A stretch of DNA of 63,598 nucleotides, filler included, from Collodictyon triciliatum (lineage: Eukaryota), in NCBI GenBank assembly GCA_043381765.1. It is 6 parts of 6 records of this genome, joined end to end, with 100 filler letters (N's around TTAATTAATTAA, not from the genome) between each part and the next. Parts side by side here need not be neighbours in the genome. Positions count along the whole stretch, not along the records: positions 1 to 19,944 come from JBHJMP010000285.1; 5 more parts are not named here. One strand, written 5' to 3'. Shown piece after piece: positions 1 to 52,500 of the stretch. The notes below the pieces were generated by a model. It was given only the letters and a program-made list of their open reading frames with translations. It was not told the DNA's origin and searched no databases. A program made the translations under genes and the position numbers. Each line of letters opens with the position of its first letter. The stretch's first letter is position 1.

Positions 1-23
1 GCATTTTCAAAGTGATGTTATTA

Positions 24-2623
<2,600 letters not shown>

Positions 2624-2707
2624 CTTATTTGTACTTCGAATATGTCTCTTGATGCATGAAGAGCAATATTTCTTAGGGTATTCTTTTTTCTCTTTCAATT
2701 CTTGTAG

Positions 2708-4032
<1,325 letters not shown>

Positions 4033-4266
4033 CCACCGCATATCTAATAAACCTTGCTTGTGACAAAGTAGCCACCAAACAAAGGATATCCATCCATTCA
4101 TACCAAAGGTGGAAATTACGGCGCGCACCTTAAGCCACTCCACTCTTCCATGTCTGCTTTGCAGATGAATCACGCTTCGCTGCGGACGTCGCATAGTTGA
4201 TTCGACAACAAAGCCTTGTGGGGCGACAGGGAGGTATGCAGCGGGCCACTGACAAAAGACACTAGG

Positions 4267-7200
4267 ATGGCCACATTCGGAGAAGTCGATCTTGTAGAGT
4301 CGCTAGAGGAAAGTGACGATGGCTACCCTGGGGAGGATGAAGAAATCCATGAGGAAGAGGAAGAGGAAGAGGAAGAGGAAGAGGAAGAGGAAGAGGAAGA
4401 GGAAGAGGAAGAGGAAGAGGAAGAGGAAGAGGAAGAGGAAGAAGACCTATGCTCCGATTCAGACAGCGAACAAGACAGGAGTGACTTCATTGAGAGTCAA
4501 GAGGACGATCAAGAGCATCGGCCACATGCGAATGGACGCAGTCGCTTTGTGATCAAAAAACCACTGCAGAGGCCCAACAAAGACAAAAGGAAACACATAG
4601 GGATATTACCGCAAGGAGGAGACTGGCAGGACATTCAACCTGTTCAATATTCTTTTCGAATCCGTCGCAAGGAACTTAGAATCTCACCCATTCGCGCTTT
4701 TCGCAGCCATATTGTGCGGCTCCGGAGCAACGCAGGGTTGAATGCAGAACTTGATCCAACCTCCATTCCGCTTTCGAAAAAGCTGAGGCGAAGCGTATGC
4801 AAACTTTACAGACTAACGGGATCGTTCTTTTGGAATCGCAGGGAGATTGATGTGGGTGGATGGGGACTGCATCAAATGCACCCAGACTTGCTTGCTCTTA
4901 TCCTCGCATCAGGACCCGAAACTCTGATGATGCGCGAAAACCACCTCGAGCAGTTTCATCTTGCAAGAGCCATCCACAGGCTCGGTCGTCCTCCACGTGC
5001 ATTTGAAGGTCTGATGGGAATAGGTTCCTTCGTAAACGAGCTTCACAGACAAGAAAGCGATGTTCAGCCGTCTTTGCACGAAACTATATATCTTGCAGAC
5101 AATATCGATTCCAGGGTCTCTGCGCTGCTTGCCACTTTGCAAACGCTGGATGTGTCCCACAATAATCTGGGGACATTGCCATCTGCCATCAGCAGACTGG
5201 AGCAGCTTTTCTCTTTGAATGCATCACACAACCACTTGACACGAATAGCCTCTGGTGCGCTCTGGCTCCCGAATTTAGTTGCTCTTGATCTTTCACACAA
5301 CAACCTAGTCGCCTTTGGTGATGTTCCAAAAACCAGTCTTAATATTGCTCTCCTCCCAAGGCATGGGACACTGTCTTCTATAGACTTGCAGGATGAAGAC
5401 CTGCTCGGGTCACATCACAGTATTAAAAACGTTGTAGAAGAGGAATCCTCTATATTTCTTGGAAAGCTCAATTCATTAGACCTTTCGCACAATCAAATCA
5501 CTCTGTTATCCGGAGCGTTGTTGTTCCCAGGGCTGCAATCACTGGATTTATCTTATAATAGATTCACATCCTTCGCTCTTCGAAAAGATATGCAGTTCCC
5601 GGGGTTACACTCTCTAAAATTGTCGCACAATCAATTGATCTCATTCGAATTGCCCCATAACCCAGAATCTACTCATAGTATTCAAAACCTACAAGTTCTG
5701 GACCTTTCCTACAATCTATTGTCCTTTTTGCCCCTCTCCTTTCCTTTTGTAGTGCCCAGACTCCGCTCTCTGAATCTTTCACACAATCAGATTTCTTACA
5801 TGCCGCCAGCTTTCGCTGCCCTGTCATACACCCTGGCAGATTTGGACCTTTCATACAATCATATTTCAGTTCAATCAATCGCTCTGGCCCGTCTCCAGTC
5901 CTTCTCCTTGGCCAAAAATGGACTCGCCACTCTGTCATCCACATTTGCATTTTTCCTTCCAAACTTGCATAGCCTGGATCTCTCAGACAACCAAATATCA
6001 GCACTACCTCATGATTTGCGGTCATTTTCACATATCCATACGCTTAATTTGTCTCGCAACTGCCTCTCGGGGTTACCACCGTCTTTTGCTGCATTGGCTC
6101 GATCTTTGAGCGCGCTGGACCTGTCCCACAATCGCCTTGCTAACCTCCCTGACTTTTTCTCTTCTCTCCACGCCGTGCAACGTCTTATCCTTAAAAGCAA
6201 CTTCTTTTCAGGATTTCCAGTTCCTATTTGGCATATGGGGAAACTCAAGCAATTATCGTTGGGAAATAACTCGATGACCGAGCTACCTGAACCCTCATGG
6301 ACACAATCCATGACCTCAACATACTCTGCCTGGCCATCAATAGAGTATTTGGACCTATCCAACAATCATCTCGTGAATATTCCAACTGCGTTATTGGTTT
6401 CCTTACCATCTCTAGTTTTCGTAGACCTTTCGGGAAACAAGATTGTGGCAGATCCATATGCATATGTATCGCTTGGCATACTACCAAGCATCCAGACGGT
6501 ATTGCTCTGTCGTAATCAAGGACTTCCTCCCATAGAATTGCCAACTAATTTGCGTGAACTGGATATATCGCACACCATGTCATCAGACCTGCCCATTGGT
6601 CTTTCGAAGTGCTCTCTTTTAACGTCACTTTCAGCCAGCAAAAATTCGCTTCTCTCTATACCCGCATGGTTTTCGTCCCTGACCAAGGTTCATGAAATAG
6701 ATTTCTCAGAAAACAAGCTCTCTTCCATACCCCAGGACGTTTGTCATTTTTGGGGAAATCTCAAGTTGCTTAATCTATCTGACAATCTATTTTCTCATCT
6801 ACCAACTGCTGTATCCTTATTGACAGGAATAACGCACCTGAATTTATCCGGAAATCAGCTGTCCACTTTTGCGCCTGACAGCGATTCAGTCAACATCGCA
6901 CTTGATAGACTTGCCAGTTTGCAGTTGGCCAGAAATTCATTCCAATCTATTCCCTCTGCCATCACATGCGTTCCAAACATTTTGGACATTAATCTGATGT
7001 CAAACTTTATTTCATCGATTACAAAAGACATATACAAACTCAGTGCTGTAGAGTCTTTGAATTTATCCTCAAATTTGCTATCTGTACTGCCCGTGACTTT
7101 TGGTCATTTGGTATCCTTGAAGAGACTATATTTATCTTCAAACAAGTTTAATCGAATTCCTGAGCCGATATCCACCTTGGTAAATCTCGAAACTCTTCAC

Positions 7201-10200
7201 CTTCATGATAACCAAATATCCATACTTCCTACACATTGGCAGAATCATTCTGGTCTTCTAGATCTCACTCTTCACAACAACCAAATTTCGTGGCTACCTC
7301 CGTCATTCTCTGGGCTCTCCTCTTTACAAAATCTATGCATTGCGAATAATCCTGTGGGATATCTGAATCCTCTGTTATCTTTGTGGAGCCTCACCAGTTT
7401 GGATTCTAACAGCGCTGAAATCGGGCCCATCCACTTCACACTACCAAAGGCATACCCAATCAAACAACTACTATTATCCAACAACAACATTTCGTCCATC
7501 CCACCATCTATTAGTTTACTCAGCTCCTTGCAAGTGATGGACATTTCAAAAAACCTTTTGTCTGTGCTACCAGCAGAGGTAGAGAGTTTATCTCACCTTA
7601 GTGTCTTGAATTGTGCTGGAAACGTCATATCTGCTATCGACTTTTCTTTTAAAAATTTCCACCACCTTCGAACGTTATTGCTGGGAGATACAGAGAATGG
7701 AAACTTGCTCACAAGCATCCCATTATCACTAACATACTGCACATCATTGCTCATTCTGGATTGTTCGTTCAACAAGCTATCTTTCTTGCCTGAAGAAATC
7801 AGTGCCTGCTTGAATTTGCAGGAGCTGATACTAGAGAAAAACCAATTCAGTGGGCTACCAAATACGTTGTCTATGCTAAGTTGTCTTTCTAGCCTTAGGA
7901 TTAGAGGAAATCCGATGCCGCATGCTACTCAAAGAGTGTATGAATCCCTTACAAACAAGGACCGAAGTCGCTTGAACCTGTCTCAATTGGACTCGGCAGT
8001 TCGTCTGGAGCATATTCAGCATGCGTTGCAACTAGTAGATGTTATAACTTTGGATTTGTCATCTAATCGCCTGACGGAATTGCCACCATGGATTAGTACA
8101 CTATCAAATCTGAAGCATCTCATTTTAGACTATAATTTACTGCAAGTTTTGCCGCCCTGGATTTGTTCCATGAAGCTCCATCAATTATCTCTGAAGGGGA
8201 TTCTTCAAATGAGCCCGAAGCTGTCATCTAGCTATGCATCCATCATCCCACTAAAGAGTATGAACACTATGGAGAAGACATTAAAAATCCTCCAAGTGTT
8301 GAGAATTGTGGAGTCACCAAAGGACAAAATCTTTGAAATCTACGAAGAATATGCATGCCAGCAGCTCAATCAGCTATCACAGTCGTACACAATCAACGGA
8401 GAGGTTTATGATGCCTCCTTGACAACAGTCGAGCTGGCGTGCAGTTCGAGTGCAAGTCAGTTTCTTTCTCAAGATCAAATGCAGGATTCTGTTTGGAGGC
8501 GCTGGACAAACTATGCAAACCCTCGCCGATACTTGCGTGAAAAGTACAACCGGAGCAACTGGTGGAGTGATGGGTTTACGAAAGGCACGTCTACTTTTCT
8601 AGAGTCGTGTTACCACGAGCTTTACCCATTTATCATCTCTCCGTTGGCAAAATATCTAACGTCAATTGCTGCCTTTACTCTATACCTTTTAGTGCTGATT
8701 TCAGTTATTATGGCCAGCAACCAAACATCAAATACTCCAACATATGAGTACTCAAAAGCGCTTCACAGCGCGTTTGATCCATCTATGGTGCGAAGCACAG
8801 CCGATTATTGGGCTTATATAGAAAACGTATTTATCCCATTCACTTTTTCTCATCAACACTACCTGAACTCAAACTCGAGCGGCTTATGGCACGGTGGAAA
8901 TTCCTTCTTCCGACTGCAAAGTCCAGTCAATCAAAGGCAAATCAGGAGTTGGAAGAAGAACTGTGTTTATCATTATCATTTATACCATCAGCCGAATTAT
9001 GATGTGGATTCAAATAACACAGCCCCTGTAATTCAATACTGTGTCCCTCCATATTCCTTCAATACAGAAGAGTTTGAATCTTTTGGGACAAACAACACAT
9101 TTGAATGGACATCCCATAATCCAAACTTTAATTCCAAGATACAAGGTCACTCTGGGACTTGGTACTCGTCAGCCGGATACATTATTCACATGGGATGCAC
9201 TGAACATGAGGCACATGAAAAGAATCAAGCACTGAAAAGAGAAGGGTGGATTGATGAGCAAACGCGTGCTGTCTTTGTTGAATTTGTTGTTTCTAATCAA
9301 AACCTACGAGTTGTCTCGCAAGTACTTGTCTTTTTCGAGTTCAATCCAAGCGGGTTACTATATCCAAATTTACGAATCACAACAATTCCTATCTCATGTT
9401 TATCGGGTGGTTATTCGTCAACTCTATCTTACTACTGGGTTCTTTCGTTGTTTGCGATGGCTTTCATCTCCCACGAGGTGTCAAAGTACGAACTTGAGCG
9501 TAAGAAATATTGGAAACAAAAATGGAACTATTTAGATTTGGGGATAATCTCTTTACTATGCGTATTGATTTTCAACCAGTTTGGTATTTTCCTTTTTGCG
9601 CCGCATGTTGTAATTGCCCCAGACGTCGACGGAAGCCTTCCAATTGACGTACAGGAAGCATCTTTCGGAACATCTGTCGCTTTGCACAATATTCAAAGGG
9701 AGGTGTCTGGAGTACTCGTGCTGTTTTCGTTTGCAAAATTCTTTTACTATTCACGACTCCAGAGCATCCTGGGCCCATTACAGATATGCGTATGGGAAGT
9801 ATTAAGTCGCTCATTTCGCTACTTTTATGTGGTATCTATCTTCTTTGCAGCCTTTAGTGTCAGTTTATATGCGGCTTTTGGAGATGCACTTGCAGAGTTT
9901 TCATCGCTTCCTCAATCCATAAACAGCTTGACCCAGCTGATGTTTGGTGTCTTTGACTTTGAAGTCATACATCAGGATGGAACCATACTTGGGTCTCTTT
10001 TCTTTTATGTCTCTCTCACAACTTTTGGTCTGCTATTAATTAATCTCTTGATTGCCATGATGACTGGGCTGTATGCCGATGCCAATCGAGCTGCCCATCA
10101 GAAGCATGCGTTGTTGGTAGCTTCAGCGACGTTGGACATGATGAACTATCCAACGCCACCACCTTTCAATCTGTTCTCTGGGACATGGACTCTTTTGAAA

Positions 10201-10263
10201 AAGAACCTATTCCCACTTATTGATATGGAGGGGGCTGATGAGGTGAGAAAAAGAAATGCATAA
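4267..10263 (+). CDS. Poly-Glu N-terminus + roughly 40 leucine-rich repeats + polycystin-2/TRPP-like 6TM cation channel (single ~6 kb exon; probable donor at 10243)
   Basis: 2015-aa ORF, ATG at 4267. LxxLDLSxNxL repeats over ~5130-8200. TOP-domain motifs RQIRS...C, YSSAGY, LKREGWIDEQTRAVFVEF; WNYLDL; pore FSSLPQSINSLTQLMFGVFDF; S6 LLINLLIAMM. Confidence 0.92.
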   Translation: MATFGEVDLVESLEESDDGYPGEDEEIHEEEEEEEEEEEEEEEEEEEEEEEEEEEEEEEDLCSDSDSEQDRSDFIESQEDDQEHRPHANGRSRFVIKKPLQRPNKDKRKHIGILPQGGDWQDIQPVQYSFRIRRKELRISPIRAFRSHIVRLRSNAGLNAELDPTSIPLSKKLRRSVCKLYRLTGSFFWNRREIDVGGWGLHQMHPDLLALILASGPETLMMRENHLEQFHLARAIHRLGRPPRAFEGLMGIGSFVNELHRQESDVQPSLHETIYLADNIDSRVSALLATLQTLDVSHNNLGTLPSAISRLEQLFSLNASHNHLTRIASGALWLPNLVALDLSHNNLVAFGDVPKTSLNIALLPRHGTLSSIDLQDEDLLGSHHSIKNVVEEESSIFLGKLNSLDLSHNQITLLSGALLFPGLQSLDLSYNRFTSFALRKDMQFPGLHSLKLSHNQLISFELPHNPESTHSIQNLQVLDLSYNLLSFLPLSFPFVVPRLRSLNLSHNQISYMPPAFAALSYTLADLDLSYNHISVQSIALARLQSFSLAKNGLATLSSTFAFFLPNLHSLDLSDNQISALPHDLRSFSHIHTLNLSRNCLSGLPPSFAALARSLSALDLSHNRLANLPDFFSSLHAVQRLILKSNFFSGFPVPIWHMGKLKQLSLGNNSMTELPEPSWTQSMTSTYSAWPSIEYLDLSNNHLVNIPTALLVSLPSLVFVDLSGNKIVADPYAYVSLGILPSIQTVLLCRNQGLPPIELPTNLRELDISHTMSSDLPIGLSKCSLLTSLSASKNSLLSIPAWFSSLTKVHEIDFSENKLSSIPQDVCHFWGNLKLLNLSDNLFSHLPTAVSLLTGITHLNLSGNQLSTFAPDSDSVNIALDRLASLQLARNSFQSIPSAITCVPNILDINLMSNFISSITKDIYKLSAVESLNLSSNLLSVLPVTFGHLVSLKRLYLSSNKFNRIPEPISTLVNLETLHLHDNQISILPTHWQNHSGLLDLTLHNNQISWLPPSFSGLSSLQNLCIANNPVGYLNPLLSLWSLTSLDSNSAEIGPIHFTLPKAYPIKQLLLSNNNISSIPPSISLLSSLQVMDISKNLLSVLPAEVESLSHLSVLNCAGNVISAIDFSFKNFHHLRTLLLGDTENGNLLTSIPLSLTYCTSLLILDCSFNKLSFLPEEISACLNLQELILEKNQFSGLPNTLSMLSCLSSLRIRGNPMPHATQRVYESLTNKDRSRLNLSQLDSAVRLEHIQHALQLVDVITLDLSSNRLTELPPWISTLSNLKHLILDYNLLQVLPPWICSMKLHQLSLKGILQMSPKLSSSYASIIPLKSMNTMEKTLKILQVLRIVESPKDKIFEIYEEYACQQLNQLSQSYTINGEVYDASLTTVELACSSSASQFLSQDQMQDSVWRRWTNYANPRRYLREKYNRSNWWSDGFTKGTSTFLESCYHELYPFIISPLAKYLTSIAAFTLYLLVLISVIMASNQTSNTPTYEYSKALHSAFDPSMVRSTADYWAYIENVFIPFTFSHQHYLNSNSSGLWHGGNSFFRLQSPVNQRQIRSWKKNCVYHYHLYHQPNYDVDSNNTAPVIQYCVPPYSFNTEEFESFGTNNTFEWTSHNPNFNSKIQGHSGTWYSSAGYIIHMGCTEHEAHEKNQALKREGWIDEQTRAVFVEFVVSNQNLRVVSQVLVFFEFNPSGLLYPNLRITTIPISCLSGGYSSTLSYYWVLSLFAMAFISHEVSKYELERKKYWKQKWNYLDLGIISLLCVLIFNQFGIFLFAPHVVIAPDVDGSLPIDVQEASFGTSVALHNIQREVSGVLVLFSFAKFFYYSRLQSILGPLQICVWEVLSRSFRYFYVVSIFFAAFSVSLYAAFGDALAEFSSLPQSINSLTQLMFGVFDFEVIHQDGTILGSLFFYVSLTTFGLLLINLLIAMMTGLYADANRAAHQKHALLVASATLDMMNYPTPPPFNLFSGTWTLLKKNLFPLIDMEGADEVRKRNA

Positions 10264-10718
10264 TTAACATTATATCATGTACAATCATGAGCATTTCGTT
10301 CTAATAAATAGCCAACGATATCCCTTTTTACTCTTTATAAAAAATTAAATTAACATGTAAAATTAATTAAATGATTACCGACGTTGGTCTTCGGACGCTG
10401 TGCATTCAATAAATCAAAACAGCACTTCAATGGTAATCGCAAATATGAATACTAATAACACTTGTATTTTCTTGAGAGATTACATCATATGGTTCCTACC
10501 TTGTTGGTGAATGAAAAACAAATGAATCATTAGACCGAATGCCCCCATCCTTTTTTTATTACATTTTATTTTTTTCTCTCTATTATGCACTTCAACGTGT
10601 ATTTATTTGTCAGTAAGCCTTTTTGTAATTCGTTACCCGTTTCGTTTCCTTCTTGGTTTCCTATACCAATCAGAATCCATCAGACACTTACGAAAACACA
10701 CTTGTTAACACAACTCAG

Positions 10719-12608
10719 TGACAGCCCTCCAGTTCAACCGGTTCAAAGCACCACTTTCCCACGACAGGGACGCGCCAGAGACAGCGTGCAACATCACCGC
10801 CGACGGACTCAGTATTTGCCTCACCAGCAGCCAAGCAGCAAACATCATCGCAGTATATGCATGGACGCGCCGAGATAAGTTCCAGTACTTTGAAGTGGAG
10901 ATGATTCAGCCAGGCAGAATCTTTGTGGGGCTTGTGTCGAAGGCATCGGACTTCCAAGGCGTGCCTGGTGTCAATCTGGAGTCAATCGCCTTCAGCGGGT
11001 TTGATCAGGCATCTGTCTGGTCCAGCTCCTTGTGCGACATGGTCGGAGATTCCTGGAACAGCCCGGGGGCCATCATCGGCTGTGGCGTGGACTTTGCCAG
11101 AAACTACATCTTTTTCACGCGCAATGGAGTCCCCGTTCCGCGCAAGTTTGGGTTCTTTTGTGACGGCGACATGTACCCGATGATTCATCTGGGCGAAGCA
11201 GGCGCATGTGTGCGAGCAAACTTTGGAAAGACGCCGTTTGTGGGGAACCTCAAAGAGCTGCGCATGATGTCGTCCAGTTCGCTGGGTCGCTCCATTTGCA
11301 ACCAGCAGCGCGAAGAAAGCAGAGTCTTTGAGGCGCCGCAGTCGACGAAAGTGTGGGCGTCCAACTCGGGCGGGTTTCTCTCATACACGGCAGAGACCTG
11401 TGCGCGCGCAGTTGCATCAGACATTGTCACGGTCCTTGCCCAGGAGGACTGGATCAAAGAGAAGGGCTCGTCGTCCTTTGGCATCCTTGTTTTGCATGCG
11501 GGGCTGTCTCGCGATATCACCATCGGCTTTTGCGACCGAACGTTCCCGAGAGACCAGCGGCTCGGCTCGTGCGACAACTCGGTTGGATTCACGCTTTCAT
11601 TTGAGAAAAAGAAGGTTACCATGCAGACGTCTCTCTTTGGGTAAGGATGAATGTTTGGGTGCAGGCAAAGGCTCGCTTTTCTAACCTTTTTTTATTTATT
11701 TATTTATTTATTTTTGCTATTTGTTTTCTCAGTGGCTTACTTTGCTCATGTAATGATATGGTGGCGCAGCGCGATGCGATGTGTTTTTCTTTCTTCTTTT
11801 TTTAAAAAAGAAACAACGGAAACACAAGAACAAAATAACAAAAGAAAGATAAAATAAGAGACTATAGCAGAGAATATTATGCACAATGATGATTGTAATC
11901 AGCTTTAATTGAATCCACAAAACAATTCCATACGCGAGCAGCTCATCTCAACCACCTGAATGTGCGAAAAGAATCCAACTAATCTGACACATTCTCTTGC
12001 CAACTTTCCAACTTTCTTTTCTCTCATCTTTTCTCCTCACCATGACATGCATCTGCCTTTTCCTGCCTCGTGATTCGCCCGACCAATCACGCACCGAACC
12101 GCCCAGAGTCAGCACTAAAGCAGAGGCGTCTCTGGAGGCAACCGACACGCACAGCATCCGCACCATCGGCCTGCAAGTCCGCGAGGAGACACAAGGGCAG
12201 TGCGTGATTCAGCTGCTCATCAACGAGGCCCCATCACACGACATGTGCAGCTCGTTCTCCTCGCTTGTGATTGCACACTTGCATCCGGCAGTCACGCTCG
12301 AGGCCAAGCCGCAGTCTGTGTGCATGCACAGCCTTTGCCTGTTGCCCGACACAACGCCGAGACCAGAGCCGCATGCGCACAGCTTTGCGCAAAGCAGACC
12401 GCTTCGCTTTTCCGACTCACTCGGCCCGGCTCCGGGTCTGGCTCTGTCTGGTACAGCCTCTGCGTTCAGCCCGCTGCGTGTGGCAGAGGCCGATGTCTCG
12501 TTCTCTTCCTTGGATGCTCGGCGCTCGAGCAGCCTTCTTGAGAACCAGTCCAATCGTACGAATATGCGGCATCGCAGGCGCATCCGCTCCAATCAGAGCA
12601 CAGCCTAA
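10719..12608 (+). CDS. Two tandem SPRY (RanBPM-like) domains; exons ~10719-11640 and 12107-12608; probably the C-terminus of the LRR-TRPP gene
   Basis: YFEVEM..GRIFVGL...VPG..ESIAFSG...IIGCGVDF..NYIFFTRNG...MYPMIHL...VRANFG. The second, degenerate copy is split by a phase-2 intron (GTAAGG 11641 / CAG 12106). No in-frame ATG precedes the first domain. Confidence 0.8.
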
Positions 12609-13398
12609 TAGGTCTTCTTTTTTTTTTTCTTTTTAAGTCATCTTTTTCTCTCCGCCTTTTCTTTTCTTTTTTTTTTTCTCTTCCCCCTTTCCTTTTAACT
12701 TTTTAACTTTGTGGTGTGTCTCTTTGTGTTTTGTTTCGTTCGTTGGTCAAATCGGTGGGAGTTGGGCATTGAGAAAGTGCCTTCGGGAGCGGAATAAAGG
12801 AAACTTAAACATAATCATGACCAATGAAAGATTGATTCTTGTTCAATTATGGCTGTACTGATGGAATAATTAATACTAAGACGGCGAGAATCTAATGTGT
12901 TGGGGTCTCAATTGTTTGTTTGTTTTTTCCTGAAGTGGGACGCTTGCAATAGCATCTAGACGTGTTCTTTGTTGCCTGCGAGTGATGAAGAGCCCTAGCA
13001 TACGACCTCCTCCCAGACATACGTCTGATGAAGCCGTGGAGCGATGGTTAAACTTTTAAATATTACGAGGCGAAGTTGCATACTAACAAATAATAATGAT
13101 AATAATTACATTTATCGCAGCACACATCAGGAGCACGTTAAGAATGGAAAGTCCCCAGACAAGGTTGGCTTTGTTTTGGTTTCTCTTCCGATAGTTGTTC
13201 TAGTGAAGGTTGGTTGGTGTTAAATTTTACTATTTTTTCCCCATCCCCTTTTAATAGAATATCCATTTTTTCTAGCAGCTTATGGATGTAAAATATAGAT
13301 ATTTGATTACGACATTTGTTTCGATTGGCAATAGTTTAAGGGTTTGGCTCTGAATTTTAAAATATAAAGGAATTTAAAATACATCGTATATGATTTAC

Positions 13399-14544
13399 AA
13401 ACCACGTAAAAGAACAGGATTGTAGACATGAAAAGGATGACACTCATTAGAAAGTGCTGATATGCATCATAGACTCCGTAGTACACACCAACACAGAACG
13501 ATGCCTTTGATTACGTGTTATACTGAATGGGTCAAATAGAAAACTGAAACAATTGCACAAAAACATAAACACCATACACAGTAACAATAACAATAGCAAT
13601 AGCAATAACAGTAACAATAAGAATAATCATAATCATAATAATAACATTAATAATAATCATAATAATAACCATAATAATTATGATAATCATCATAATAATA
13701 CTGATAATCATAATCATAATAATAATAATACCAACGATATTATATTAGCATATGCAAATGTAATCAAACAAATAAATAGTGCATAAAGAGAAACATGACA
13801 GTGAATATAAAAAATATTAATATATTAAAAATAATAGGTAAATCATAGATTCACAAATAGATAAAGAAATAGATATAAATAATGAATAACTTGACTCACA
13901 CTCACAGCCATTCCAATTACTATCTCCACAAACAAAGTCAAGTGTTCCTCCTTCCATATTTTGCAGCAATTTGTTATGAAAGGAGGTAGATAAAGAAAAT
14001 CTTGGTGAGTCTTGCAATCGCAAAACGCAGGTTGGCTTTGCAAAAAAGAATACAAGCAAGTGGAACGAAGAGCTGACCCTAAAAAAACGGGCGATTCCAA
14101 AGTACAGAGTTTGCTCACCCACTCAGACATATCCCTTTGTCTCAGCCTGATCGGATCTGCGCTTTGCTTTGTTGACGTTTCAGACAAGTCTGCCTTTTTG
14201 ACTTGGCAGGCGCTGGGAATAACTAGTGTGTTCCTTCTAACGTGAAACCTAACACAGAGCCCTACTCTCTTGCCTTTTGCCCTTCCCTCAAAAACATGTA
14301 TATAAAAACAATACAAAAAAAAACACAAAAAAACACAAAAAAACACAAAAAAACACAAAAAAACATAAAAAACACAAAAAAACACAAAAAAACACAAAAA
14401 AACACAAAAAAACACAAAAAAACACAAAAAAACACAAAAAAACNNNNNNNNNNNNNNNNNNNNNNNNNNNNNNNNNNNNNNNNNNNNNNNNNNNNNNNNN
14501 NNNNNNNNNNNNNNNNNNNNNNNNNNNNNNNNNNNNNNNNNNNC

Positions 14545-14641
<97 letters not shown>

Positions 14642-49500: not shown

Positions 49501-52500
49501 AAAATAGTTCTTACAAACTGTACCAAAGAAGTATGATTATATGCATAACTTAAAGACATCGTCCAGGAAAGATCGACATGAAATTTTCCAACAGCCTGTC
49601 ACAGAAGAGGAGGCACCGATGTATTTCTCAATTATTGATATTCCCGTAAGTTTACCCAACACTTATAGTGAGGCTTTTTACAAAATTATTTTATTGCTCT
49701 AGGACCAATATAAATCACTATTCTCTTCGTTACATTTTCTAAATTAGTTGTGCCTTGTTTATAGATGGACTTTGAAACCCTTGCATCAAATGTGGAAAAA
49801 AACATGTACCCCAATTTTGAAAAATTCAAGGTAATGCTTCACATTTCGTTCATGTAAAGCAAGATAGCCCTTCTTTTTATATATATATATATATTTATGA
49901 AATTCCTACTGTCAAAAAAAAAATTAATCTAATCGTCGCTTGTGTATATTCAAGTTTGCATATGTCAAAATCATGTTTTTTTTTAAATGTAATACTCCTA
50001 CGAACACACGCATAAATTTTAGAACCATTTGTTCCTCATCTTTAAAAATGCCATGAAATACAATCCGTCTGACACAATATACTACCGTGAGGCCAAAAGA
50101 TTAAACAAGGTATGAAACTAATATTATGCATGAGGTTGATTTTCTATTTTTTTTCTTTTCTTGTCTAGTTCCAAGAAAAATTTGCGCTACCACCAGTTCT
50201 TATTTTATTTCTATTCCTCTATCGAAGTGGGTTGTTAAGTACATCACAAGGATGTCTGAGCGGCTAGATATTCCAAACCTTCCTTACGTTGCTGAACCTA
50301 AAGTGAAGAAGACAAAAGGTAATCATTGTCCCCTTATGTAATCTTTTCTTTATTGTGCACAAATTTTGGTAAACCCACCAACTTGGTACATCTCTTTTCT
50401 TTTTCTTCTTTTCTTTTTCTTCTTTTCTTTTTTCTTTTTTCTTTTTTCCTTTCTTCTTTTCCTTTCTTCTTTTCCTTTCTTCTTTTCCTTTCTTCTTTTC
50501 CTTTCTTCTTTTTTCTTTTCTTTTCTTTACCTTTCTACTCTTCTCTTCTCTTCTTTTACTCTTTCTCTTTCTCTTTCTTTTCCTCTTTCTTTTCCTCTTT
50601 CTCTTCTTTCTCTTTCTTTCTCTTTCTTTCTCTTTCTTTCTCTTTCTTTCTCTTTCTTTCTCTTTCTTTTCTTTCTTTTCTTTCTTTTCTTTCTTTTCTT
50701 TCTTTTCTTTCTTTTCTTTCTTTCTTTTCTTTCTTTCTTTTCTTTCTTTCTTTTCTTTCTTTCTTTTCTTTTTTTCTTTTCTTTTTCTCTTTCTTTTCTT
50801 TTTCTTTTTCTNNNNNNNNNNNNNNNNNNNNNNNNNNNNNNNNNNNNNNNNNNNNNNNNNNNNNNNNNNNNNNNNNNNNNNNNNNNNNNNNNNNNNNNNN
50901 NNNNNNNNNNNTCTTTTCTTTTTCTCTTTCTTTTCTTTTTCTCTTTCTCTTTCTCTTTCTCTTTCTCTTTCTCTTTCTCTTTCTCTTTCTCTTTCTCTTT
51001 CTCTTTCTCTTTCTCTTTCTCTTTCTCTTTCTCTTTCTCTTTCTTTTCCTCATATTATGATATTGAGTTTCCATCCCTTTTGTTTTGAATATTGTAATTG
51101 GCTCTTGGTTATTTCAAAATTTCATTTGGCGCTATACCTTGTTTACTTATTTTTATTCACCTTCATTGTAATTCCACAGGGCCCGAATATAGTGCGTTGC
51201 TTTCACCAGGGTCAAGTCGGAGTGGTCCAAGACTCGATTCCTTCAATTCTCACACCCTAGGCAGCAGACCTGATATGTCTCATGGCTCAGATTCATTACC
51301 ATCTCATCTGCATTCACACGGTACATTTATGGCTTCGTCGCAAACAACACAATATCCTATGACATCTCCAACATCGAGATATCCCAGCACTGGCTCTCTA
51401 TCGAGCGAACACCCTCCGGCTCGATATCCTTCTTCGTCTTCTAATTTAAATAGTGTGGCATATGCTCATCAATCACATTCAATCACCAACCCGAGCTCTA
51501 GTGATGTCGGTAGGGAAATATGGCATTCTTCATTTCCATTTGAACATCCTTCTTATCTATACTTTATTTATATATATCTTTTCTGCATGCATCTTGCTTC
51601 ATTTTCTTTTTTTCTTTTCTCTTTTTCTTTTCTCTTTTTCTTTTCTCTTTTTCTTTTCTCTTTTTCTTTTCTCTTTTTCTCTGCATAACTTTAATTTTTA
51701 TTCCAAAGTTTTTACTTTATTTTTGTTTCATTTTTTTATAGTATTCAGAATTTTCACTTCTCCACACTTTCCCTAGAGCGTATCCATGGCCTCGTCTCAC
51801 CTTTAAAAAACATCACATGTTAACATGAAATCTCTTAACACAGGACATGGCGCATTCACTCATTCGGCTGCCATAAGCAACCTTAGATCGCCAATGACAT
51901 CTCGAACACTCGAACAATCATATCCAAATGATGATTCCACTTTATCTGCCAGCTTTTCTCGTCCAATCGCCAGTCATCCACCAAGGTTGTCGCAGAATGT
52001 ATTCCCTCATGAAATGCGGAGTGTTTACGACTCTACAGGTTCCGAATCAATCCAAGCTAGCCTCAATAAGTCCAGTTTCCAGTCATCCAATGATACACCG
52101 TTCAAACTGTTCAGCCAATTCTACAAACAAGTTTCTGTCGATGACCGTAAAGACCAGTCCCAGACAAAGCCCCCTCAGAAAGAAAATGAGCAACAGAATT
52201 TAACGCCCGAACAAAGCTACCTGACCAAACTCTATTCACTTGAGAATGAAGGATTTGACATGAGGTTATTTTATTTTATCTCCTTTTGTTTTGTTTTGTT
52301 TTGTTTTGTTTTGTTTTGTTTTGTTTTGTTTTGTTTTGTTTTGTTTTGTTTTGTTTTTCTATTTTGTTCTGTTTTGTTCTGTTTTGTTCTGTTTTGTTCT
52401 GTTTTGTTTTTAAGAAAAAAATCACTATCTCGATTATAAAAACAATTGAAAAGTCATTTACATCATTTACATCATTACCGTTATTGTTATTACGATAGAA

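Follow-up and report, generated by a model that had tools for sequence, protein, structure and literature searches.

The DNA considered here is a stretch of 63,598 nucleotides, filler included, from the eukaryote Collodictyon triciliatum (assembly GCA_043381765.1), made of six parts joined end to end; it is called the window below, and all positions count along it. In its first part (positions 1 to 19,944, from JBHJMP010000285.1), the + strand is open from 4201 to 10263, and the ATG at 4267 begins an uninterrupted open reading frame (ORF) for a product of 1998 amino acids, a run of codons far beyond chance. This frame joins a long array of leucine-rich repeats (LRRs) to a channel of the PKD2 type (TRPP), a group of transient receptor potential (TRP) channels, and it is followed on the same strand by two further coding stretches that encode a tandem SPRY module. 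Spliced at the predicted junctions, the three stretches form an open frame of 7386 nt and 2461 amino acids (Table 1). The reading preferred here, to which we assign a probability of roughly 0.7 to 0.75, is that they are the three exons of one gene and that its product of about 2461 amino acids is a PKD2-like channel subunit.

Table 1. Features of the proposed gene in the window, and its relatives in Diphylleia rotans.
Feature	Position	Strand	Description
Exon 1 (proposed gene)	4267-10242	+	1992 codons: N-terminal region, LRR array, linker, entire channel; from ORF and Pfam
N-terminal 290 aa	4267-5136	+	Extremely acidic stretch, then basic stretch; no signal peptide or recognised domain
LRR array	5137-8172	+	Residues 291-1302; about 36-40 repeats of 23-24 residues, LxxLxLxxNxLxxLP type
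Helical pre-S1 linker	8215-8634	+	Residues ~1317-1456 (~140 aa); conserved columns shared with Diphylleia family
S1	8644-8724	+	Residues 1460-1486; hydropathy 2.36; helix 219-244 in AlphaFold model numbering
Polycystin/TOP domain	8785-9387	+	S1-S2 loop, residues 1507-1707; Pfam PF20519 (Polycystin_dom)
S2-S6 pore module	9424-10077	+	Residues 1720-1937; Pfam PF08016 (PKD_channel)
Selectivity-filter position FGVFD	9943-9957	+	Residues 1893-1897; HMMER alignment to LGDFD of PKD2L1
Post-S6 motif PTPPPFNL	10150-10173	+	Residues 1962-1969; family form PxPxPxNL
Intron 1 (proposed)	10243-10732	+	490 nt, GC 0.32; donor GAG/GTGAGA, acceptor CCTCCAG/
Exon 2 (predicted)	10733-11640	+	SPRY1 (~10886-11230) and first half of SPRY2
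Intron 2 (proposed)	11641-12106	+	466 nt, GC 0.38; donor G/GTAAGG, acceptor CCCAG/, phase 2
Exon 3 (predicted)	12107-12608	+	Second half of SPRY2, Ser/Pro/Arg-rich tail; stop 12606-12608
Diphylleia members (EukProt EP00002)			P033110=P0006, P011439=P0007, P022272=P0157, P035109/10=P0009/P0158, P032528=P0159, P025998=P0011

The N-Terminal Region and the Leucine-Rich Repeat Array

The repeats are recognised by Pfam in the ORF through LRR_8 (E = 3.7e-83) and LRR_4 (E = 1e-64). A search for an LxxLxLxxNxL-type pattern places 37 of its 44 matches within residues 291-1282, mostly at a spacing of 23-24 residues, and a hidden Markov model (HMM) built from repeats of the protein itself counts 36 units across the array, interrupted by four gaps. 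Such a self-built model is circular by construction, and the independent support for LRRs is that given by Pfam. The four gaps could hide a few degenerate repeats, and the count of about 40 proposed in the earlier note on this DNA is a fair one. Pfam reported neither LRRNT nor LRRCT caps for the array.

The 290 residues ahead of the repeats open with an unusually acidic segment, in which the first 60 positions include 43 Asp or Glu and not a single Lys or Arg. Pfam at E <= 10 returned insignificant low-complexity matches only for this N-terminal region. The region also contains a perfect microsatellite, (GAGGAA)15 at 4351-4442, which lies inside the coding sequence and is read as a run of about 30 Glu near the N-terminus. 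Because the first 60 residues are so acidic and no strongly hydrophobic segment precedes S1, the first transmembrane helix of the channel, neither a signal peptide nor an extra membrane pass is expected, in agreement with the earlier statement that the repeats are made without a signal peptide.

The Channel Module

By domain content and predicted fold, the S1-S6 part of the product is a full PKD2-type channel. Pfam identifies Polycystin_dom in the S1-S2 loop (E = 1e-17, 64.8 bits against a cut-off of 23.6) and PKD_channel over the pore module (E = 2.8e-20, 73.2 bits against a gathering cut-off of 22.4), and Ion_trans was matched as well. Both hydropathy and the AlphaFold model show six membrane-spanning helices and, between S5 and S6, a pore loop. 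When the protein from residue 1440 to its end was compared with all PDB sequences, PKD2L1 (E = 3.4e-25) and PKD2 (E = 5.7e-23) aligned from S1 to past S6, and the matches to PKD1 and TRPC3/6 were much weaker. The AlphaFold model of residues 1241-1992, computed with a 40-row alignment, has a mean predicted local distance difference test score (pLDDT) of 87.5 and a predicted template modelling score (pTM) of 0.83; its best Foldseek match is PKD2 (9dwq_A, E = 9e-21, template modelling score 0.85 normalised by target length), with the TOP domain included in the superposition. The Cys pair of this domain (residues 1566 and 1592, or C326 and C352 in model numbering) is nearly invariant in the 40-row alignment, and three N-x-S/T sequons occur in the S1-S2 loop. 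At the selectivity filter, which is acidic and reads LGD in PKD2 and LGDFD in PKD2L1, the window protein retains the Gly and the second Asp and has Val in place of the first Asp. LRRs and a TRPP-like channel thus share one uninterrupted frame of 1998 amino acids in which Pfam recognises the domains of both, as the earlier note had claimed, and it is close to certain that this fusion is real and conserved.

Because S1 is the first membrane pass, the passes total six and the topology of PKD2 can be taken as a guide, the N-terminal LRR array and everything after S6, including the SPRY domains, are predicted to be cytosolic, with the TOP domain outside the cell or lumenal. The six passes, the absence of any pass before S1, the acidic N-terminus and the conserved Cys pair of the TOP domain bear out the cytosolic placement that had been proposed for the repeats. 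Neither the 1998-aa ORF nor any exon downstream of it gave a Pfam match to the C-terminal EF-hand and coiled coil of canonical PKD2; the SPRY domains occupy their position.

The Pre-S1 Linker and the Post-S6 Proline Motif

The segment that connects the repeats to S1 is modelled by AlphaFold as eight helices, mostly at pLDDT > 90. It has nothing significant in Pfam (E <= 10) and no sequence match in the PDB. Folded alone, it reaches a pLDDT of 78, and the first 24 rows of its Foldseek search, which are redundant and all at E >= 0.5, are without exception chains of TRPM2/3/4/5/8 or TRPC4. On the other side of the pore, the motif PxPxPxNL is found in 11 of 164 scanned proteins, nine of them the window protein or proteins of Diphylleia rotans and two of them others. 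PDB matches to TRPC3 reach as far as this motif, which we take to resemble the proline-rich segment behind the TRP box of TRPC and TRPM. Searched alone, the post-S6 tail gave non-significant matches only, among them Chlamydomonas TRP1 (6pw4), aligned at PPFNL.

It is conceivable, if doubtful, that the family represents a hybrid TRP lineage, in which a linker of group-1 type and a proline motif like that of the TRP domain are combined with the TOP domain of group 2. LRRs would then replace ankyrin repeats as the sensor of force or ligand by which the pore is gated, and the tandem SPRY module would serve as a second receptor site in the cytosol. If true, such a lineage would be a new class of sensor-gated TRP channel and would offer a view of ancestral TRP architecture. 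The possible group-1-like character of the linker bears on the divergence of the two TRP groups.

The SPRY Exons and the Predicted Splice

Near the end of the ORF, the sequence GAG/GTGAGA at 10243 supplies a candidate donor in phase 0, which is the sole GT in the last 64 nt and lies 18 nt before the stop at 10261-10263. The frame that follows downstream (10709-11644) matches Pfam SPRY (PF00622) at E = 4.1e-16, with 59.6 bits against a gathering cut-off of 26.3, and its first Met falls inside the SPRY domain, leaving the frame without a usable start codon. Its first phase-0 acceptor is the CCTCCAG/ that ends at 10732. An alternative route by way of a mini-exon (10479-10506) to an acceptor at 10719 reads as likewise open and in phase. 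The donor just before the stop, the SPRY exon lacking a start and the two possible acceptors had all been named in the earlier note, and each was recovered here. Should intron 1 be retained, translation would run into the stop at 10261-10263 and yield a channel-only isoform of 1998 amino acids.

It is very probable that the SPRY exons are part of the gene-family module to which the channel belongs. A profile made from six Diphylleia C-termini was compared with 459 ORFs of the window and ranked the exon 2 frame first, at E = 3.7e-31, and a tblastn search with the Diphylleia protein P0006 matched exon 2 at E = 8e-17. RanBP9 provides the best solved SPRY domain for this exon (E = 1.1e-12), and the ESM Atlas, queried with it, returned generic SPRY clusters only. 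Exon 3 alone has nothing significant in Pfam (E <= 10) and comes third of the 459 ORFs against the Diphylleia profile (E = 0.88), aligning to the next profile positions and colinear with SPRY2 of Diphylleia. Splicing it onto exon 2 raises the profile score from 103.1 to 117.8 bits, a gain of 14.7, and a score as high was reached by none of 200 shuffles of exon 3 (mean 102.4, maximum 111.4). The two proposed introns are alike in length and in low GC content (Table 1).

Relatives in Diphylleia rotans

When the channel part was used as query in a complete HMMER scan of 1.84 billion representative proteins, 2097 matches reached E <= 0.001. Only seven of these fell below 1e-30, at 25-28% identity, and all seven are Trinity transcripts of one flagellate, Diphylleia rotans (EukProt EP00002). 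Taken as a family, the Diphylleia proteins are 24-28% identical to the window protein. Pfam found LRR, Polycystin_dom and PKD_channel in each of six Diphylleia proteins and SPRY in four of them, and P0157 and P0159, the longer isoforms of the two members in which it found none, can be aligned through both modules. Matches to the LRR region of the window protein (12 proteins) or to its SPRY exon (5 proteins), sought in the 163 other proteins compared, came from Diphylleia only. A maximum-likelihood tree computed from 20 channel domains unites the window protein with eight Diphylleia proteins in one clade, supported at 100/100 and set against 11 other PKD2-like proteins. At the position of the first filter Asp, the Diphylleia relatives have D, E, N or A, and the family motif can be written LFG[DENV]F[DN]F.

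Other searches were less productive. A word-indexed search with the channel part returned four animal PKD1-like proteins only and missed Diphylleia. P0007, which is the most central of the Diphylleia proteins, was searched in the same way and returned itself, P0011 and two weak channel matches, with no relative from another taxon. For a metagenome scan, conservation was too low in every stretch of the family alignment; a scan with the single protein matched 12 patterns and no relative, and tblastn found no paralogue elsewhere in the window. The earlier note had not recognised the architecture from any described protein. This stands insofar as no description of it was found in the literature, but the architecture is not unique to the locus, since at least six transcript genes of Diphylleia rotans carry it.

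The Diphylleia transcripts also speak to the boundary between channel and SPRY module. Three isoforms were seen for gene DN4362 (P0008, P0157 and P0156), namely a full-length form with SPRY, a short form and a SPRY-only partial transcript. The short isoform of 1263 amino acids is identical to the isoform of 1632 amino acids up to residue 1221, just before SPRY, and then continues for 42 hydrophobic, Tyr/Ile-rich residues to a stop. This looks like retention of an intron at the module boundary that also holds the proposed intron 1 of the window, and because of this isoform pattern, channel-only and channel-SPRY forms may coexist. Two further features set individual Diphylleia proteins apart: P0006, P0007, P0009, P0011, P0157 and P0159 have about two extra transmembrane-like segments between S6 and SPRY1 and may thus have eight membrane passes, and P0159 (2237 aa) continues for about 600 residues past the SPRY modules.

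The conservation of the domain order also bears on whether the locus encodes a functional protein at all. The 22 N runs that mark the window as draft assembly, the long branch of the protein in the tree and the exchange of the filter Asp for Val might raise the suspicion that the locus is a chimera of the assembly or a pseudogene in decay and makes no functional fused product. This explanation is highly improbable, however. No N falls inside 4267-12608, the frame stays open over 1998 codons, the junction of LRRs and channel is a conserved and confidently folded domain common to independent Diphylleia transcripts, and the same domain order is present in at least six Diphylleia genes.

One Gene or Two

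Several observations weigh against a single gene encoding a PKD2-like subunit. The junction 10242/10733 is a predicted splice, and GC content at third codon positions (GC3) changes abruptly at just this point. It is 0.45 in exon 1 (4267-10242), where all twenty 100-codon blocks range from 0.36 to 0.54, and 0.69 in exons 2-3 (10733-12605), where all four blocks range from 0.67 to 0.75 (z = 9.4). Other ORFs of the window have a GC3 of 0.35-0.56, and no other coding sequence in it is as rich in GC3 as the SPRY exons. Such a step would be compatible with a gene that has evolved separately, with recent acquisition or conversion of the SPRY exons, or with a local effect of recombination. Read from the sequence, an independent SPRY gene could have its start at an ATG at 10489, which is followed by TTG/GTGAAT at 10507 and is in phase with the same acceptor. 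Between S6 and SPRY1, the Diphylleia proteins are longer by about 200 residues, which include about two hydrophobic segments and which the window model does not have; tblastn found no homologous exon for this insert in 10243-10732. In the tree, the branch of the window protein is long (1.87), and its placement as sister to the other members of its clade is weak. With Val at the first acidic filter position, ion selectivity or conduction itself may differ.

These points can be assembled into a two-gene explanation. An LRR-channel gene of 1998 amino acids would end at 10263, and a separate tandem-SPRY gene would begin with a short ATG exon (e.g., 10489-10506) spliced to 10733, the pair having arisen by fission of an ancestral fusion. 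The GC3 shift, the ORF's own stop 18 nt past the donor, the candidate ATG with its in-phase GTGAAT donor and the S6-SPRY linker, shorter by about 200 residues than in Diphylleia, all favour this arrangement, as do the SPRY-less members or isoforms in the Diphylleia family (P0012, P0161 and P0008). Against it, the 3' untranslated region (UTR) of the first gene and the promoter and 5' UTR of the second would have to fit into 226 nt. Stop and acceptor are only 469 nt apart, in a window whose genes are spaced by kilobases. The SPRY module is family-specific by the Diphylleia profile and is encoded in phase, on the strand of the ORF and in unchanged order, and the candidate start exon, itself unsupported, comprises six residues only. 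Two genes are thus possible but rather unlikely, and a single three-exon gene is the arrangement carried forward here.

Possible Function

TRPP channels have been studied mostly in animals, where the stimulus that opens them is debated and their cytosolic parts are short. In the one-gene model, the 2461-aa product would be a subunit of a PKD2-like cation channel, presumably tetrameric. Its N-terminal end would be a solenoid of some 36 to 40 LRRs, joined to S1 by the conserved helical linker, and its C-terminal end would be a tandem SPRY module beyond the conserved post-S6 proline motif. LRRs and SPRY domains would then most likely act as cytosolic protein-binding platforms which, by way of the linker and the post-S6 segment, would control the gating, placement or anchoring of a Ca2+-permeable cation pore. 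Such a protein would amount to a natural experiment, in which large protein-recognition modules are attached to a TRP gate while the pore and TOP domain stay the same, and it could be used to ask, in a tractable way, whether a polycystin pore can be gated by binding in the cytosol.

What such platforms would bind is a matter for more specific proposals. LRR and SPRY domains are recognition modules in other immune proteins, and the earlier note had read the protein as a one-component, sensor-gated cation channel, similar in concept to a resistosome. As an immune sensor of this kind, its cytosolic LRRs and SPRY domains would recognise pathogens or foreign molecules and open the channel directly. 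Besides this use of the two domains elsewhere, the proposal can draw on their shared predicted location in the cytosol and on the expansion of the family to at least eight genes in Diphylleia, with members as divergent as 24-28% identity to the window protein. It is nonetheless improbable. Pfam found no NB-ARC, NACHT, TIR or death-fold module in the protein, and thus nothing of the NB-ARC or NACHT domain of NLR and resistosome receptors, and LRRs of the same 23-24-residue type occur also in cytosolic signalling scaffolds.

A role as a mechanosensory or anchored channel is an equally concrete proposal. By analogy with NOMPC/TRPN, which has 29 ankyrin repeats, the LRR solenoid might connect the channel to the cytoskeleton or the flagellar axoneme in the manner of a tether or spring, with the SPRY domains as docking sites. 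A single, very long solenoid directly N-terminal to a structured helical pre-S1 linker would suit this role, as would the TRPM and TRPC chains that fill the first 24 Foldseek rows of the linker, although none of these is significant, with E-values of 0.5 or more throughout. The typical site of PKD2 channels is the cilium, and Diphylleia is itself a flagellate. LRR solenoids are possibly stiffer than ankyrin stacks, however, which counts against a spring, and this role too is unlikely.

The Surrounding Sequence

The coding islands of the window have a GC content of 42-60% and lie within AT-rich, microsatellite-rich spacers with assembly gaps. These spacers are packed with long microsatellites and strand-skewed, T/C-rich arrays (e.g., 2289-2563, 14313-14659, 36098-36492, 50393-51048 and 62176-62326), and most of the 22 N runs abut such repeats and look like assembly gaps at them. 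A perfect array of TTTTGG (x14.8) at 60960-61048 has a telomere-like composition but is internal to the window. In a second long uninterrupted ORF, of 1576 amino acids at 28883-33613 (+), a WD40 propeller occurs together with pentapeptide repeats and Sel1 repeats. A search with it gave 111 generic WD40 matches (best identity 27%), and its best matches, both bacterial and eukaryotic, reach identities of no more than about 27-35% over small parts. No tRNA genes were found in the window.

Comparison With Known Systems

In the portions of the literature returned by full-text searches, no description of an LRR-polycystin-SPRY architecture was found. In the texts seen there, polycystin-1, whose LRRs are extracellular, is the only polycystin mentioned with such repeats, and SPRY occurs together with polycystins only in two unrelated contexts. 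In the part consulted of a 2026 preprint on TRP channels of choanoflagellates and other holozoans (10.64898/2026.06.15.732245), LRR, leucine and SPRY are unmentioned. The architecture is therefore present in public transcriptome data but, as far as these sources extend, apparently undescribed in print, and it is a genuine variant of the TRPP family.

Polycystin-1 resembles the window protein in having both LRRs and a PKD-channel-like C-terminal module, with a weak match in the TOP region (E = 2e-7). PKD1 has a signal peptide, two extracellular capped LRRs, PKD/REJ/GPS/PLAT domains and 11 transmembrane segments (see also PMC10932423). The LRRs of the window protein are instead predicted to be cytosolic, with neither a signal peptide nor a transmembrane segment before S1, and the PKD/REJ/GPS/PLAT domains of PKD1 had no Pfam match in it.

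The likeness to PKD2 and PKD2L1 (TRPP2 and TRPP3) extends over the six-transmembrane fold, the TOP/polycystin domain and its Cys pair, and the Gly and second Asp of the filter. PKD2 has a short, unstructured cytosolic N-terminus and a C-terminal EF-hand and coiled coil. In contrast to these channels, the window protein has about 1000 amino acids of LRRs, a helical linker and SPRY domains, and the first Asp of its filter is Val.

Channel subunits with one or the other cytosolic module are known. LRRC8 (the volume-regulated anion channel, VRAC) is a precedent for a cytosolic LRR domain in a channel subunit, but its pore fold is unrelated or distant, and Pfam finds no pannexin-like domain here. 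Ryanodine receptors (RyR), likewise of an unrelated or distant pore fold and family, are a precedent for SPRY in a channel subunit; the match of their SPRY domains to exon 2 is weak (E = 5e-5), and no RyR-specific domains were found here by Pfam. NOMPC/TRPN, TRPM and TRPC (group 1) share with the window protein a long cytosolic repeat solenoid placed N-terminal to a helical pre-S1 linker. They differ in that the repeats here are LRRs rather than ankyrin repeats or melastatin homology regions (MHR), and in that the TOP domain is a group-2 feature; the cytosolic parts of group-1 channels gave no significant match in sequence (no Pfam) or structure (Foldseek E >= 0.5). The protein also shows that the combination of a repeat solenoid with a TRP channel has come about with other repeats than ankyrin.

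The closest counterparts are the Diphylleia transcripts, to whose records no name or function is attached. They have far fewer LRRs, with N-termini of 350-730 amino acids as opposed to 1440 in the window protein, and about 200 extra residues between S6 and SPRY1. Apart from these differences, the N-terminal LRRs, pre-S1 linker, S1, polycystin domain, S2-S6, LFGxFxF, PxPxPxNL and tandem SPRY follow one another in the same order. The design has been kept across a deep sequence divergence, that of the window protein from a Diphylleia multigene family, and conservation over such a distance argues that it is functional rather than accidental.

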